A DNA stretch of 64,000 nt, from sequence record LC483177.1. One strand, 5' to 3'. Position 1 is the first letter of the stretch. Every line of letters begins with the position of its first letter. Under the pieces are notes generated by a model. That model saw only the letters and a program-made list of their open reading frames with translations, searched no databases and was not told the DNA's origin. A program made the position numbers and the translations under genes. Positions 24,755 to 29,729 of this stretch are shown piece after piece. This stretch comes from Klebsiella phage 05F01.

Positions 24755-25231
24755 TTATTTTTCTTCAGTTCTTGCCATGCAACCAATGCTCACACCAAGT
24801 AATTTACCTGATTTTCTTGCTTGATATAATTCTGCATCATAAAACTGAACTTTAACTAAAGGTGTTCCTTCTACGACAAATTCTTCACCAATATAACAAT
24901 CTGTTTCATTAACCCAAGCTTTCATAGGTTTGAACTTATCTGTATTTTGGAGATGACCAAGATTGCCTTTGATGTTATTTATATTGTCGTTGAAGTTGTC
25001 TACCATTTTTCTAATTTCGATTTCAGACATACGTTCACCGTGCAAGTCATCCTTTTCTGGAGGACAATATAGCACTTCTATTACTTGCATTTTTTCTTCG
25101 TCGAATTGATTTTTCTTGACAACTTGAGGAGTTGGTGTAGGATCTTCAGAGTGGGGATCTATTTCACTTTTACCTTTGAAAGACGAGAATGTCTTAAAGA
25201 GGTCCCATAAGCTGTCCTTGTTTATTTCCAA
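24755..25231 (-). CDS. head morphogenesis protein (possible prohead protease position)
   Basis: 158 aa, between portal and scaffold. Has its own sigma70-like promoter upstream. Confidence 0.3.
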   Translation of the reverse strand: MEINKDSLWDLFKTFSSFKGKSEIDPHSEDPTPTPQVVKKNQFDEEKMQVIEVLYCPPEKDDLHGERMSEIEIRKMVDNFNDNINNIKGNLGHLQNTDKFKPMKAWVNETDCYIGEEFVVEGTPLVKVQFYDAELYQARKSGKLLGVSIGCMARTEEK

Positions 25232-25309: not shown

Positions 25310-26887
25310 TTAATTAGCTAAATTTGAAACAGAAGTGTCTGTAGATGACACAGAAGTAGAAGTTCCGTTACCAGAAGTTCCTTGTGCCATTCCGTCACCA
25401 GACCTTGAAGTTGAGTTTGGTAAATAATTATCACAGAACTCTTTAAATTTAACAGGGTCTGAAACTATATCTTCAGGAAGTCTATATTTCATATTTAGCA
25501 TCTCAAAGAACTCATTGAGTATCTCTGGTGTTAGAGGAATTGCACCCGCTGCTACCACACGTTGGATAGCTGATGAGTTTGTATCAACATCAGGGTCACC
25601 AATATCTTGACTAGCAAATTTAGGTATGTCTGCATCATCAAGAGAGAATCCATTAATTCTTAAAAGTTGTGGTATGATTTGAGTATTAATCATCTCAATA
25701 ATAATATTAACATCTCTCTCTATGTAATGAGAAAGTAATGTTTGTTTATTATCTGAAAGTGAGTAACTACCCCCTTCATTACCCATAATAAGAACACCAG
25801 CACCAAATCTATTAAATATATCCAGTTGTCTTTGCTTTATTAGGACATTAGTATCAAACTGCTTACCATTACCTTCAACACCTTGGAATGTCAATTCATA
25901 TTGCTGCATACTCGTATTTTCATACAAGTCAGATGGCATCACCATATATTGCTGTTCACCTGCATGGAGGTTGGCAATATTTTGTTGTAATATTAAAAGA
26001 GATTGTGCTTCTTCTCCACCAGGGTCTAAAGCTGCCCTATTAAGAATAGTTGATGGAACTTTTAATACTGGCATACCACCTAAATCTTTAGAGACACCAA
26101 CAACTTCATATTCCTGAATAAGACTTTTTTCTCTCCAGCTTCTATACACGGCTGCAAGAGGACTTTCACCTAATGGATTTCCTTCTGTAATGTTATTACC
26201 TACCAAGATCATTTTAGACATTGGGATGTTTTTAACACCAGATGATTGTGGTGAGAAAAATCTACTATTTAAAGATTTAACTATATTCTGATTAACAGAT
26301 AATATTTCCCTTCCATCATCAGAAAAGACAAAAGGGTTAGTTATATCAAGTGTATCTTGTGGACGTGCTGCCAGCTTCTGTAATCTGTAGTATCCATAAT
26401 AAGGACTAGATGGATTAGTATCTTGCTGATAAACTTTTTCTGCTAAAGCAAAACCGAATTGCTTATATGAAAGTAGAGACCTGATATACTGTCTCAGTGG
26501 TGCTTCCATATTTCTTAATGTGTAATCTACAAATTTTGCTGCTTTCTTTGATTTTGCAGATTTTGTGTTATAGTTGATTGTGAAATCAAAAAACGCTCTA
26601 TCTACAAACGTGTATGTGGCATCTAATGCTGTTGCTACATCAGGGTCATAACCCATTTCTTTATATGTTCGGATACACTCTGGAAATCTTAGCTCATAAT
26701 TTTGAAGAAAGTTAGTAAATAGCTGTATGGAGTTAAGACCTAATGTGCCTATCTCTTTAGAGATTACTAATCTGGCCTCTTGAGTGTCAACTGGAGCAGC
26801 GGGACTTGCCGCTTTACTAACATTCTTATTCCAGTATTCCGAGCGTTTAGTATACTTTCTTTTCAACGGCTCCTCCAGAATAAACAA
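25310..26887 (-). CDS. portal protein
   Basis: 525 aa, immediately downstream of the large terminase. The start is TTG with no convincing SD; an alternative start is Leu8 after GGAGGAG. Confidence 0.55.
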   Translation of the reverse strand: MFILEEPLKRKYTKRSEYWNKNVSKAASPAAPVDTQEARLVISKEIGTLGLNSIQLFTNFLQNYELRFPECIRTYKEMGYDPDVATALDATYTFVDRAFFDFTINYNTKSAKSKKAAKFVDYTLRNMEAPLRQYIRSLLSYKQFGFALAEKVYQQDTNPSSPYYGYYRLQKLAARPQDTLDITNPFVFSDDGREILSVNQNIVKSLNSRFFSPQSSGVKNIPMSKMILVGNNITEGNPLGESPLAAVYRSWREKSLIQEYEVVGVSKDLGGMPVLKVPSTILNRAALDPGGEEAQSLLILQQNIANLHAGEQQYMVMPSDLYENTSMQQYELTFQGVEGNGKQFDTNVLIKQRQLDIFNRFGAGVLIMGNEGGSYSLSDNKQTLLSHYIERDVNIIIEMINTQIIPQLLRINGFSLDDADIPKFASQDIGDPDVDTNSSAIQRVVAAGAIPLTPEILNEFFEMLNMKYRLPEDIVSDPVKFKEFCDNYLPNSTSRSGDGMAQGTSGNGTSTSVSSTDTSVSNLAN

Positions 26888-26951: not shown

Positions 26952-29051
26952 CTACCGCTTATTGAACCTTGGGATTTTAGATAATGGCCTCTTATTTGTC
27001 AGTCCATAACTTGATGCCTTAGTTCTACTTGAAATAGCTGATGGTATTGCTACAGCAGTAAATATCTGCTCTTGTTGGATTGTATTAAAAGCAGATGCAC
27101 AAGCATCTGGAATATCATCCTTAACAGTTGCTGTTGATCTCTCACCATTGAATACTTCAAGTTCACGATAGAAATGGTCTAATGTTTCTTGATTAGGGAA
27201 TGAATCCTCTACTATATAAACAAAACCGTTTTGACATGCACTACTAAAAGGGGTGAACTTTTGTAGTTTTTTCTTATTGCCGGGCATTGCATCAGACTTC
27301 ACAGCAAGTCCATTTGAAATAAGTTTTTTAGCAGACTCTTGATACTCTACAGCACCTGCTGCTGATGGATCTTTTGGTAACACTACCGTGATATTAATAT
27401 TATGTTCTTCATTATCGTAAAGAGATTGTTTCAATATCATTGTATCCCTTTCTCCGGGTAGTCTTCTAAATCTTCCATAGATTTTAGACTTCTCATCTAT
27501 AGAATCAAGAATATAGTCACCGAAAATATAGATATTACCATTAGAATCTTTAGCCATTTTAATAGATACTGTATAGTCAGGGTATTTATATTTTTCAGTG
27601 GGGATAGATGCAGCTTTATCCCATGCCCTTACATACTTCATGTTCTTTGGTATTTTATCATATGTGATTTTATTTAGCCATTCTCTTTGAAAATAGCTAG
27701 ATGCTTGTTCACGTGCATACCAACAACCATCCAAAAGTCTTTCTCTGTTAACTTTTGTTTGTGCTTTAAGAGATGCAAGATACCCTGGATTGAGCCTAAT
27801 AAGCGCCGGGTTATCAAATATTGTTCCACCTATAAACATAAACGTCTTAGGTTTAATTTTAACCATCTCATCTGTGTTTGGATTATACTGTTCACAGAGA
27901 TCAGGATATTTTTCTTCCAACTCTTCTGCTGAATCTGAGAAAACAGGTTCATTATTATTAATCAGAAAATATAATTGCTTTCCACACATCTCATCTGTTG
28001 GAAAACCTTTATCATCTAAATAAGGTATTACCCACTGTAAAACCCAGCTATCAGCATCAGGGTTACATGTAGATAGGCAGAAGCTTTCTGTTTCTGATTC
28101 AGAACGTAAACGTCCTATTAGATAGAGAAATTGGGTGATACTGAAATGTGTAAGTTCGTCAAATCCTACCATGGAGTACTGTGTACCTTGGTGGTTTGCC
28201 TCTGCTGTTGATTCAAGCTCAAGATGGTCAAACTTTAATTTTCCACCAGTTGTAGCTTGAAACTCAATTTCCATCACAGTTTCTCTTACAATAGGTCTTA
28301 ATGGAGCATATAATTTCTTGGCTTCTGTAAATAATCCACCTGCACTTCTGTGTGCCTTAGTTGTTCTTCTAAAAAGAACTCCATCAAAAAGGGGGTCTTT
28401 GTGAGCAAATTTTAATGCTTTTAATAACAATAATCTACTTTTACCACTATTACCTGTTACAAAGGTATGCCCACCTCTTCTTAAAATAAGATAAGATGAA
28501 GGAGTTTCAAAGCAATACTTATACCCATCTGTTGGAACTGTCTCAAATATTTTAAGGTATGTATTCTCTTTACCTAAGATATTGAATGGAATTCTCTTAC
28601 CATAGTAAGTTTCTACATATCCTCTTAAAGGGTGTCCTGCCTGTTGAAGAGCGATAAGGTCACCTACAGCTATCTCAAAATGTTTTTTTGATTTTTTCTT
28701 TTTATAAAAGACAAATCTATGCTCCATACTAAGCTCTTGAAATATCCCTGAAGCATTCTCTATGCGATATAGATTATCTTTTGTCTCTATCTCATCAAAG
28801 TAAGGGGTAATCTTTTCTATTTTTTTATTATCTGGATTATACTGATAGATATCCTCACCAGAATAATCTTTAATTTTTCTCCAACCAAATTCAGATAGAT
28901 ATTCAGTTTCAGCACTGACACAACCAGCAGCACCTCCATAAATCATTACATCTGGCATACTATCCATTGCAATAGTTTGTTTTCCTGGCTGTGCTTCTAT
29001 TTTAAATACTGTATTTTTTAAATCATTCTTTGCTTGCTTTCTAGGTGCCAC
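26952..29051 (-). CDS. terminase large subunit (contains a 158-aa mini-intein)
   Basis: GTG start. The N-terminal P-loop is split: IYGGAAG | CVSAETE...HTFVTGN | SGKSRLLLL. Splicing restores GGAAGSGKS. A C-terminal nuclease-like region is present. Confidence 0.85.
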   Translation of the reverse strand: MAPRKQAKNDLKNTVFKIEAQPGKQTIAMDSMPDVMIYGGAAGCVSAETEYLSEFGWRKIKDYSGEDIYQYNPDNKKIEKITPYFDEIETKDNLYRIENASGIFQELSMEHRFVFYKKKKSKKHFEIAVGDLIALQQAGHPLRGYVETYYGKRIPFNILGKENTYLKIFETVPTDGYKYCFETPSSYLILRRGGHTFVTGNSGKSRLLLLKALKFAHKDPLFDGVLFRRTTKAHRSAGGLFTEAKKLYAPLRPIVRETVMEIEFQATTGGKLKFDHLELESTAEANHQGTQYSMVGFDELTHFSITQFLYLIGRLRSESETESFCLSTCNPDADSWVLQWVIPYLDDKGFPTDEMCGKQLYFLINNNEPVFSDSAEELEEKYPDLCEQYNPNTDEMVKIKPKTFMFIGGTIFDNPALIRLNPGYLASLKAQTKVNRERLLDGCWYAREQASSYFQREWLNKITYDKIPKNMKYVRAWDKAASIPTEKYKYPDYTVSIKMAKDSNGNIYIFGDYILDSIDEKSKIYGRFRRLPGERDTMILKQSLYDNEEHNINITVVLPKDPSAAGAVEYQESAKKLISNGLAVKSDAMPGNKKKLQKFTPFSSACQNGFVYIVEDSFPNQETLDHFYRELEVFNGERSTATVKDDIPDACASAFNTIQQEQIFTAVAIPSAISSRTKASSYGLTNKRPLSKIPRFNKR
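28449..28922 (-). mobile_element. mini-intein inserted in the terminase Walker A motif
   Basis: Starts with Cys (block A, CVSAETEY). Block B is GIFQELSMEH (TxxH-like). Ends ...GN followed by Ser. No endonuclease domain, 158 aa. Confidence 0.7.
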
Positions 29052-29059
29052 ATAATCTC

Positions 29060-29392
29060 CTATTTACTTATAATGTTTTTATCTTTTAATAATTTTATGT
29101 AGTCTTGTAATGTTTTTAATCTGTTACGATCATTTTCCCAAAGAGCATTATTCAATGTTTGATTTTTAACTACATCAGAAACACTTACACCATGTCTGAT
29201 TTGTGACTCTGTATATAAAATTGGCGTTGATATTGTATCTAGATCAGACTGATCTGGGGACTTAATATCCTCTGTAGCTACAACTTTACATTGCTCAGTT
29301 ACTATTGGGGAAACTTTCGTTGATGATGCGCAGCCCACTACTGTCAGACTTAAAGCAAGTAGAAATACCTTCAGAACTTTTTTCATAGTCAC
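29060..29392 (-). CDS. o-spanin (outer-membrane lipoprotein, Rz1-like)
   Basis: Signal peptide with lipobox LTVVGC. 110 aa; overlaps the 3-prime end of the i-spanin gene in another frame. Confidence 0.55.
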   Translation of the reverse strand: MTMKKVLKVFLLALSLTVVGCASSTKVSPIVTEQCKVVATEDIKSPDQSDLDTISTPILYTESQIRHGVSVSDVVKNQTLNNALWENDRNRLKTLQDYIKLLKDKNIISK

Positions 29393-29729
29393 TAACCTTT
29401 TTATTGATATTAGTTTGTTTCTTATTTAATTCATTTTGTAATTTTGTGTTTGATTTTTTTAGATCACTTATCTGGGAATTCAATGCTAAACGTTCTGAAT
29501 CTGCCTCTTTCTGTTTCTGATCTAAGTAATCTATAACTTCTTTTTGTTTATTGTTAAATACTTCTGTTTGGTGTACAATACCTGCATCATATCCATTAGC
29601 GTATATTTTATTGTATCCCCAATAACCACCAAATGAAATAGCTGCAATAATGGCTATAACTATTGCCGTTGTCCTAATGGAGCTATTCTCCTTCAGGAGG
29701 TTGTAAACTGACAGTATCATTGTCAACAT
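29295..29729 (-). CDS. i-spanin (Rz-like)
   Basis: N-terminal TM helix (TAIVIAIIAAISFGGYWGY) followed by a coiled-coil, Lys/Gln-rich periplasmic domain. Confidence 0.55.
   Translation of the reverse strand: MLTMILSVYNLLKENSSIRTTAIVIAIIAAISFGGYWGYNKIYANGYDAGIVHQTEVFNNKQKEVIDYLDQKQKEADSERLALNSQISDLKKSNTKLQNELNKKQTNINKKVSDYEKSSEGISTCFKSDSSGLRIINESFPNSN

Follow-up and report, generated by a model that had tools for sequence, protein, structure and literature searches.

No other phage inteins are as common as those of the large terminase subunit (TerL), and their classic target is the P-loop (PMC5050341; PMC2807308; bioRxiv 10.1101/2025.01.02.630785). Five representatives of the mycobacteriophage TerL inteins, including the P-loop intein TerL1-b, splice in a reporter, and it was argued that splicing is necessary for the ATP site (Kelley et al. 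2016, PMC5050341). Canonical class 3 inteins prefer the P-loops of phage ATPases of the helicase and terminase types, and a phage origin has been proposed for them (PMC2807308, PMC5222942). Here we analyse the TerL gene on a 64,000-nucleotide stretch of Klebsiella phage 05F01 (LC483177.1; the whole stretch is called the window below), in which the Walker A motif is split by an insert of 158 amino acids (aa). The insert is very probably a mini-intein, functional in cis-splicing and fixed in the TerL gene of a phi92-like (Stephanstirmvirinae-related) phage. TerL P-loop inteins are a well-known kind of element; according to a 2024 paper, no inteins have been reported in coliphages (PMC11162368), and our literature search brought up no report of one in phi92/phAPEC8-like phages.

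The closest characterised relative of the insert is AceL NrdHF, a naturally split intein of class 3 which splices cleanly and fast, with a half-time of ~4 min, and which comes from a contig of probable phage origin (Hoffmann et al. 2020, PMC7891396). It has Ala at position 1, and its reaction depends on Cys124, the fourth residue of block F (F:4), as the first nucleophile. The scissile bond at the N-terminal junction is strained by Ser65 and His68, the latter kept in place by Thr144 (G:5), and the intein ends in Thr144-Gly145-Asn146 before Ser+1. The histidines at F:13 and G:6 are lacking; the G145H replacement abolishes activity, and Arg69 (B:11) touches the C-terminal scissile carbonyl and partly compensates for their absence (PMC7891396). 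In inteins of this kind, e.g., the mycobacteriophage RDF intein, the change of Gly at G:6 to His slows or abolishes splicing (PMC5050341, PMC7891396). The working definition of class 3 requires that there be no Cys at position 1 (PMC7891396).

Insertion into the Walker A motif

The TerL precursor is encoded by an open reading frame (ORF) of 699 aa plus stop on the minus strand (26952..29051; all TerL coordinates below refer to this strand). It is identified in the ORF list, by PHROG 979 (terminase large subunit, E = 1.3e-198, a profile that covers the intein too) and by Pfam Terminase_6N (2.2e-21 on the unspliced protein, with a weak Terminase_6C match). The N-extein (28923..29051, residues 1-43) ends in VMIYGGAAG, the first half of Walker A, and aligns without gaps to intein-free homologues up to its final Gly. 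The insert (28449..28922) occupies residues C44 to N201 of the precursor, numbered C1 to N158 below. The C-extein (26952..28448, residues 202-699 and the stop) completes Walker A with SGKS and contains the ATPase and RNaseH-like nuclease domains. The sequence across the junctions, with key codons checked by hand, is ...VMIYGGAAG↓CVSAETEYL...GGHTFVTGN↓SGKSRLLLL..., and deletion of the 158 residues restores GGAAG↓SGKS. The first-pass annotation, made from the letters alone, had placed a mini-intein exactly at codons 44-201 without stating the strand; its motifs CVSAETEY, GIFQELSMEH and GGHTFVTGN↓SGKS are all present, and the P-loop is rebuilt by excision as it had said.

When the insert was deleted in silico, the Terminase_6N match rose from 77 bits over model positions 8-214 to 83.9 bits (1.6e-23) over 1-214. 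Terminase_6C remained sub-threshold on the spliced protein (19.3 bits vs 22.6), and a search of spliced TerL against PDB sequences gave no relative at E <= 0.01. With its Walker A ATPase domain, C-terminal nuclease domain and adjacent portal gene, the protein belongs to the Terminase_6N / RNaseH-like nuclease type.

A Walker A loop interrupted by 158 residues cannot form the phosphate-binding loop. Since the insert splits this motif, ATPase activity and packaging would require its excision. We propose that TerL is made as an 80-kDa precursor which, with Walker A broken at GAAG↓SGKS, would be unable to bind or hydrolyse ATP. The HINT domain would then fold and cut itself out as an 18.6-kDa fragment, and Gly43 would be joined to Ser202 by a normal peptide bond, giving a 61-kDa active packaging ATPase-nuclease with the junction peptide ...VMIYGGAAGSGK. 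The computed masses are 79.9 kDa for the precursor, 61.4 kDa for ligated TerL and 18.6 kDa for the intein.

The mycobacteriophage P-loop inteins TerL1-a and TerL1-b likewise interrupt Walker A of a phage large terminase (PMC5050341), but their hosts are of the Terminase_1 family rather than the Terminase_6N type, and they lie between the Walker Lys and Thr, or one residue off, rather than at G↓SGKS. In addition, TerL1-b and TerL1-c carry identifiable, active endonuclease domains (PMC5050341), whereas the window copy has none. The TerL intein of phiCbK is similar in that it lies in the N-terminal ATPase part of TerL of a Gram-negative phage and was recognised through intein-free homologues (Gill et al. 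2012, PMC3556154). It differs in being 341 aa long, beginning with Pro, ending in His-Asn, lying between the conserved Lys and Ser and being seen by InterPro signatures (PMC3556154).

Homologues with and without the insert

The best 120 homologues from a collection of 5.8 billion proteins were sorted by their Walker A content. Intein-free homologues of ~500-520 aa run straight through the site (LIYGGAAGSGKSRLILLKALK...); P0019, P0020, P0023, P0030 and others read IYGGAAGSGKSRL, with no insertion or deletion at the junction. Aligned with eight of these proteins, as the first-pass annotation had advised, TerL spliced in silico is 49-60% identical over ~510 residues and the junction is exact.

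At precisely this point 38 sequences (the window protein and 37 homologues) bear an insert, which always begins with Cys, ends in Gly-Asn and is followed by SGKS. By size the inserts form three groups: 158/159 aa in phi92-like phages, 146 aa in Vibrio-phage-like proteins (e.g., PWH3a-P1) and 246-328 aa in the third group. The large inserts show LRLQVAVMADGR-like and WDGS-like motifs and a weak, sub-threshold match to Pfam LAGLIDADG_3 (E ~0.01), and by these sequence features they look like inteins bearing homing endonucleases. The LAGLIDADG_3-like region of the 300-328-aa relatives is absent from the window copy, which at 158 aa has no endonuclease domain between blocks B and F and only a weak Pfam Intein_splicing match, as is expected of a mini-intein. 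The presence/absence polymorphism and the same-site inserts with weak LAGLIDADG_3 similarity, together with the fold model and profile match described below, bear out the view of the first-pass annotation that a mini-intein without a homing endonuclease splits the Walker A of TerL.

The insert was found in ~135 phi92/phAPEC8-like genome records (at least 80% insert coverage). The first-pass annotation had held that homologues with the same 158 aa as an integral domain would count against an intein, and formally all phi92/phAPEC8-like phages do carry the insert; but the intein-free and the endonuclease-bearing alleles mark it as an insertion element, and they rule out an integral TerL domain.

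An artefact could be imagined, be it an assembly error, a frameshift or a DNA element of the intron kind that is lost from the RNA, as the TerL genes of UAB_1 and PD114 do have a DNA-level split elsewhere, made by an HNH endonuclease ORF. We regard this explanation as having almost no chance: the reading frame is unbroken across both junctions, over 130 phage genomes sequenced independently, as well as metagenome contigs, have the same in-frame insert, Rfam finds only tRNAs and no intron in the window, and the insert folds confidently as a protein domain. A search of the window with the family hidden Markov model (HMM) found no second copy of the intein.

Two different selfish elements may be met in one terminase gene. 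In UAB_1, vB_vPM_PD114 and the "Campylobacter phages" A150, A145, C3 and A110a, TerL has the P-loop intein and a second interruption about two-thirds along, an insertion of ~1 kb with an HNH homing-endonuclease ORF (e.g., Salmonella phage UAB_1, OL656106.1, 1495-4548 of the extracted locus). The window TerL has no HNH split. The "Campylobacter phage" records (MG0656xx; host C. jejuni; ~146-150 kb) contain a TerL of the phi92/phAPEC8 type with the same identity as the E. coli phages, and their host labels look doubtful, or else the phages look to have been carried over from enrichment cultures.

Fold and relation to solved inteins

The structure of the insert was modelled with ColabFold on 30 aligned homologues. 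The AlphaFold model (mean pLDDT 88.5, pTM 0.81) consists almost entirely of β-strands, and Foldseek gave 36 PDB matches at E <= 1e-3; the top 50 matches listed, these 36 among them, are all inteins, Hedgehog autoprocessing domains or bacterial intein-like (BIL) domains. By this model, the insert has the HINT fold. The best match is the AceL NrdHF intein (PDB 6ZGQ, E = 6e-7, TM 0.70), solved with C124 and N146 mutated to Ala. A BIL or Hedgehog autoprocessing domain was considered for the insert and ruled out, since the +1 Ser and the terminal Asn are invariant and rebuilding of the P-loop needs ligation.

A profile search gave an independent route to the same structure. A single-sequence phmmer search of the insert against PDB sequences returned only noise (a WW-domain protein and an aminotransferase), so that a family profile was needed. 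The profile of 18 family mini-inteins had one match among the solved inteins, again 6ZGQ (E = 6.3e-12), collinear over residues 6-84, and it placed S65, H68 and R69 of the window intein on S65, H68 and R69 of AceL NrdHF. The block B assignment of the first-pass annotation is thus upheld, as S65 and H68 fall on the catalytic residues of the same numbers.

The stretch between blocks B and F (28560-28700, minus strand; intein residues ~74-125) opens with a lysine run, YKKKKSKKHF, and it is here that model confidence is lowest (pLDDT 59-84). It may be a leftover linker or a DNA-contact region that persisted after loss of the LAGLIDADG core. The 146-aa mini-inteins of the Vibrio-phage type have a different, shorter linker between these blocks.

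Catalytic residues

The N-terminal nucleophile position is taken by Cys1 (28920..28922), which opens block A (CVSAETEYL...GW). The core of block B, S65-M-E-H68-R69 (28716..28730, codons checked by hand), supplies Ser at B:7, His at B:10 and Arg at B:11, with F70 next at B:12. In block F, Cys137 (28512..28514) of the motif K-Y-C-F is put at F:4 by the motif pattern and the spacing to the C-terminus. The intein ends with T156-G157-N158 (28449..28457; G:5 Thr, G:6 Gly, G:7 Asn), and the first C-extein residue, Ser+1 (28446..28448), the Ser of GAAG-S-GKS, is the ligation nucleophile. In the alignment of 30 TerL inteins C1, T6, G13, W14, H68, Y136, C137, G157 and N158 are invariant and T156 is conserved in at least 90%; the +1 residue is always Ser in the TerL set. 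The first-pass annotation overlooked the invariant Cys137, Thr156 and hence the class-3-like catalytic set beside Cys1.

Resemblance to AceL NrdHF extends over S65, H68 and R69 at the same positions, the block F Cys, Thr-Gly-Asn followed by Ser+1, the absence of both assisting histidines, and the origin from phages or metagenomes. The spacing from the block F Cys to the last Asn is 21 residues in the window intein (C137-N158) and 22 in AceL NrdHF (C124-N146). However, the two are only 17-19% identical in the structural alignment. AceL NrdHF has Ala1 where Cys1 is invariant in the window intein family, and Met instead of Phe at B:12; it is made as two polypeptides around a GIY-YIG endonuclease gene, whereas the window intein is contiguous, and it resides in a ribonucleotide reductase subunit rather than in a P-loop. 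Canonical class 3 (WCT) inteins, such as mycobacteriophage Bethlehem DnaB and Msm DnaBi1, likewise have Cys at F:4, Thr at G:5 and Ser or Thr at +1 (PMC2807308, PMC5222942), but they have no N-terminal nucleophile, Trp at B:12 and usually His at G:6, where the window intein has Cys1, Phe and Gly. Gly at G:6 is shared with the mycobacteriophage RDF intein, whose host protein is unrelated (PMC5050341).

A large clade with two conserved cysteines

When 1.84 billion cluster representatives were searched exhaustively with the profile, 10,486 matched at E <= 1e-3 and 2,313 at E <= 1e-10. From the best 150 matches and the TerL set we collected 220 distinct inteins; this sample is biased to the query profile and describes the core of the clade rather than its edges. 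Cys1 is present in 216 of the 220, the F:4 Cys in 217 (regular-expression exceptions checked by eye), Gly at G:6 in 215 and Asn at G:7 in all. Position G:5 is Thr in 177 and Ser in 30, the C-terminal tripeptide being TGN in 175 and SGN in 28; the +1 residue is Ser (131), Cys (63) or Thr (26). At B:11 there is Arg in 101 and Lys in 28, counts which are approximate as they are based on regular expressions. Length of at least 200 aa, leaving endonuclease-sized room, was recorded for 171 of the 220, and 121 are inserted in a P-loop of the type G↓[S/T/C]GK[S/T]. Three inteins are without Cys1 but have the F:4 Cys (P0171 with Pro1, P0200 with Ala1 and the first intein of P0149 with Lys1), and three others have Ser or Gly at F:4 together with Cys1.

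The penultimate Gly, read by the first-pass annotation as an unusual replacement of His that may affect splicing kinetics, does stand in place of His, but it is usual in this clade, the G145H change kills AceL NrdHF, and R69 is present. Since AceL NrdHF shares this arrangement of Gly and Arg69, the penultimate Gly can be regarded as a lineage trait with a known functional rationale.

When the window intein was searched by tblastn against annotated phage genomes, only the C-terminal part of large inserts matched, in three other P-loop proteins. On translation these three targets are full-length members of the clade (CVD..TE...KYCF...TGN) with a LAGLIDADG-like region, and none is annotated as an intein. 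They reside in a PhoH-like protein of Acinetobacter phage AM24 (685-2454 of the extracted locus), a helicase-like hypothetical protein of Enterocloster phage CB473P3 (483-2954) and a primase/helicase of Pseudomonas phage KIL1 (650-3451, annotated as a two-piece join). Among long metagenomic proteins, P0121 (2602 aa), P0138 (2583 aa) and P0145 (2208 aa) contain at least four clade inteins in tandem or close succession, and in some multi-intein proteins the +1 region of one intein nearly abuts Cys1 of the next.

Is the intein active?

Several results weigh against a splicing intein. Among curated models, Pfam Intein_splicing remains far below its cut-off (E = 0.019, 15.2 bits vs 35.8) and NCBIfam finds nothing in the insert; the first-pass annotation had advised a comparison of the insert with intein block profiles, and a match is given by the family profile (to 6ZGQ) but not by these models. 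To this may be added the noise returned by the single-sequence search. A profile of the last 48 residues, built from 25 clade members, had no significant match to any solved intein, and consequently the placing of Cys137 at F:4 draws on the pattern of the motif, the spacing and the match of the fold as a whole. Both histidines that assist Asn cyclisation are absent, with Ser at the F:13 equivalent and Gly157 at G:6 in the block-pattern alignment. Within the phi92-like group there is no intein-minus allele, and the literature search found no report of splicing for this or any phi92-like TerL.

Some of these points would suit a dead or domesticated remnant, retained as an extra domain or cleaved without ligation, with TerL working in this state or as two fragments: the insert is in every phi92/phAPEC8-like genome (~135 records), the endonuclease is gone, curated intein profiles do not recognise it and the canonical penultimate His is missing. 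We consider such a remnant very improbable. The insert lies between residues 4 and 5 of GxxxxGK[ST], and a domain of 158 residues is incompatible with the phosphate-binding loop; a retained domain has no cause to keep the splicing residues, including the C-terminal Asn and the +1 Ser, invariant; the missing His is the norm of the clade, whose tested member splices fast; and cleavage alone would leave a 43-residue N-fragment with half a P-loop. From the insertion architecture, the HINT fold, the homology to a proven intein and the conserved, intact catalytic set, all of them shown computationally, we infer that the window insert splices.

Proposed splicing scheme and class

The order of acyl transfer may be suggested as follows. 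The active site would contain two conserved thiols, Cys1 and the block F Cys137, both of which probably matter, as each is conserved in ~98-99% of the clade. Ser65 and His68 would strain the scissile bond at the N-terminal junction, and a thioester would form on Cys1, or directly on Cys137. The N-extein would then be handed to Ser+1, with Cys137 probably serving, like the block F Cys of class 3 inteins, as its relay or branch point. Cyclisation of Asn158 would release the intein, and a spontaneous O-to-N shift would finish the peptide bond. Since the F:13 and G:6 histidines are both absent, we propose that Arg69 (B:11) probably stabilises the cyclisation of Asn158, as in AceL NrdHF.

The class of the intein is less clear. 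The position-1 nucleophile of class 1 is present (Cys1), while the usual helpers, Asp at F:4, His at F:13 and His at G:6, which are typical of class 1 but not strictly defining, are absent. Of the class 3 features, the F:4 Cys (by motif and spacing) and Thr156 at G:5 are present, B:12 is Phe70 and not Trp, a residue that the proven class 3 intein AceL NrdHF, with Met there, does not have either, and a position-1 nucleophile exists where class 3 has none. Judged by its residues, the window intein falls outside the formal definition of class 3 and is atypical for class 1. Pure class 1, pure class 3 and dual-thiol schemes appear about equally likely, and the sequence does not decide which Cys initiates.

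In a pure class 3 reaction Cys137 would be the obligate initiator on the Gly43-Cys44 bond and form a branched thioester at block F, and Cys1 would be non-catalytic, with some other role, for example in folding, packing or a regulatory disulfide. This is how the class 3 intein AceL NrdHF, the closest characterised relative, behaves, where C124A and C124S abolish all activity (PMC7891396), and the window intein has in common with it Cys F:4, Thr G:5, Gly G:6, Ser B:7, His B:10 and Arg B:11. The rare clade members with the F:4 Cys and without Cys1 (P0171, P0200 and the first intein of P0149) agree with it too, and three WCT inteins with Ser1 or Cys1 have been known since 2010 (PMC2807308). The conservation of Cys1 in 216 of 220 members at <=30% identity argues for a catalytic role of this residue, however, and in accepted class 3 inteins the residue at position 1 is not a nucleophile and B:12 is Trp, not Phe; moreover, the three members without the F:4 Cys keep Cys1. 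In favour of the scheme, Tori and Perler reportedly widened class 3 in 2011 to include inteins keeping Ser1 or Cys1. On balance we hold the pure class 3 scheme to be a possibility, though a doubtful one.

Alternatively, Cys1 would perform the N-S acyl shift and Ser+1 would attack the linear thioester, as in class 1, while Cys137 would be a helper in the place of Asp F:4 and would never hold the N-extein. This can be suggested with similar reserve. It accords with the presence of Cys1, Ser+1 and Asn158 and of S-x-x-H in block B, with the near universality of Cys1 and with its retention in the three members that have Gly or Ser at F:4; the B:12 behaviour of AceL NrdHF is also nearer to that of a class 1 intein than to that of other class 3 inteins (PMC7891396). 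It is hard to explain in this way why the F:4 Cys is as strict as Cys1 (217 of 220) if it is a mere substitute for Asp. In AceL NrdHF, the only studied relative, this Cys is the branch point, and Thr G:5, which in class 3 typically partners His B:10, is conserved as well.

A third, equally tentative suggestion is that the window intein typifies a large clade that is neither class 1 nor class 3 and comprises thousands of cluster representatives, mostly in P-loops of phage NTPases. Both Cys1 and the F:4 Cys would be required here, either for a relay from Cys1 to F:4 and on to Ser+1 or for a reversible disulfide by which the terminase would be kept inactive as long as the cytoplasm is not reducing, and the clade might be a living intermediate on the way to the Ala1/Pro1 class 3 inteins (e.g., AceL NrdHF) by loss of Cys1. 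If this were true, the two-thiol clade would bear on whether class 3 arose by divergence from class 1 or by convergence from cysteine proteases (PMC7664689). There is a moderate chance that the clade deserves recognition as a distinct two-cysteine mechanistic variant.

Selection and history of the intein

Among 15 phi92-like homologues, identity to the window copy is 61-78% for the intein and 67-79% for the C-extein. The intein is thus constrained as strongly as the TerL around it, which points to purifying selection. Its GC content (0.31-0.33, vs 0.34-0.39 in the rest of TerL) gives no sign of recent acquisition. We suggest that the window intein descended from LAGLIDADG-bearing inteins aimed at the G↓[S/T/C]GK[S/T] P-loops of phage NTPases. 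In comparison with the 146-aa Vibrio-phage type, the inteins are only 26-28% identical and the exteins 52-55%, and the two mini-intein lineages may represent independent reductions of different endonuclease-bearing invaders of one site. The picture that emerges is of an old mini-intein which, because it has no homing endonuclease, would be immobile and vertically inherited, and which must keep splicing.

The terminase gene and its neighbourhood

The GTG start codon of TerL (29049-29051) is preceded by a Shine-Dalgarno sequence, AGGAG (29057..29061), read from the sequence 5 nt upstream; the phi92 TerL record has an annotated AGGAGG ribosome-binding site at the equivalent place. The closest phage matches of TerL are in Stephanstirmvirinae, in the phi92-like Justusliebigvirus and the phAPEC8-like Phapecoctavirus, at ~70% aa identity (including phi92 gp119). 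At the DNA level, megablast covered at most 4% of a 20-kb window query with any genome in the phage collection. By these comparisons, the phage appears to be a new relative of the phi92-like phages. A 99%-identical TerL is present on a 21.6-kb contig assembled from run SRR22388210.

Gene order (i-spanin/o-spanin, TerL, portal, prohead-protease-like gene, putative scaffold) matches that of phi92 and its relatives. The overlapping i-spanin/o-spanin pair (29060..29729, minus strand; Rz-like spanins, PHROG 4297 and 1267) lies directly upstream of TerL, as in phi92 and EmilieFrey. Directly downstream, again in the order of phi92, there is the portal gene (25310..26887, minus strand; PHROG 113, E = 1e-73; Pfam Portal_Mu on the near-identical contig).

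The ORF after the portal (24755-25231, minus strand, 158 aa) has a top PHROG labelled "DNA methyltransferase", a name also used in the phi92 record; head-maturation-protease PHROGs match this ORF as well, and its counterpart on the near-identical contig is assigned to Pfam Peptidase_S78_2. Phi92-like records that call it a methyltransferase are probably mistaken. The lysis and packaging genes have upstream of them, as in phi92, a cluster of 13 tRNA genes (31818-35404, minus strand; Phe, Leu x2, Pro, Cys, Gly, Thr, Gln, Asn, Tyr, Ser, Arg and Met), in which Rfam gives an extra borderline tRNA-like match (32776-32849, 31 bits) that has no ARAGORN call. Between this cluster and the spanin genes, an ORF of 279 aa (30454-31293, minus strand) matches no PHROG at E <= 1e-3; gene calling on the related contig gave a gene of equal length.

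Implications for phi92-like phages

In the GenBank records inspected, the gene is labelled "terminase large subunit" or "hypothetical protein" and the intein is unannotated; such carriers include phi92, phAPEC8 and several BASEL and therapeutic-candidate coliphages. TerL is a standard marker for phage phylogeny and for prediction of the packaging mode, and an unseen insert of 158 aa distorts alignments, trees and structure predictions. The finding may therefore be used for correcting the annotation of a well-studied phage subfamily and as an entry to an understudied clade of inteins.

In this clade a class 1 nucleophile is found together with the block F Cys of class 3, and both assisting histidines are missing; the one member studied needs minutes to splice and has hardly any side reactions. 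A member as compact as this, 158 aa in one piece, with relatives growing on E. coli at 37 °C, would be an easy system for the question of which thiol acts first, and the window intein may also serve as a protein-ligation tool. For the phages themselves, DNA packaging should hinge on post-translational splicing of the terminase, a step which could be a control point or a vulnerability.

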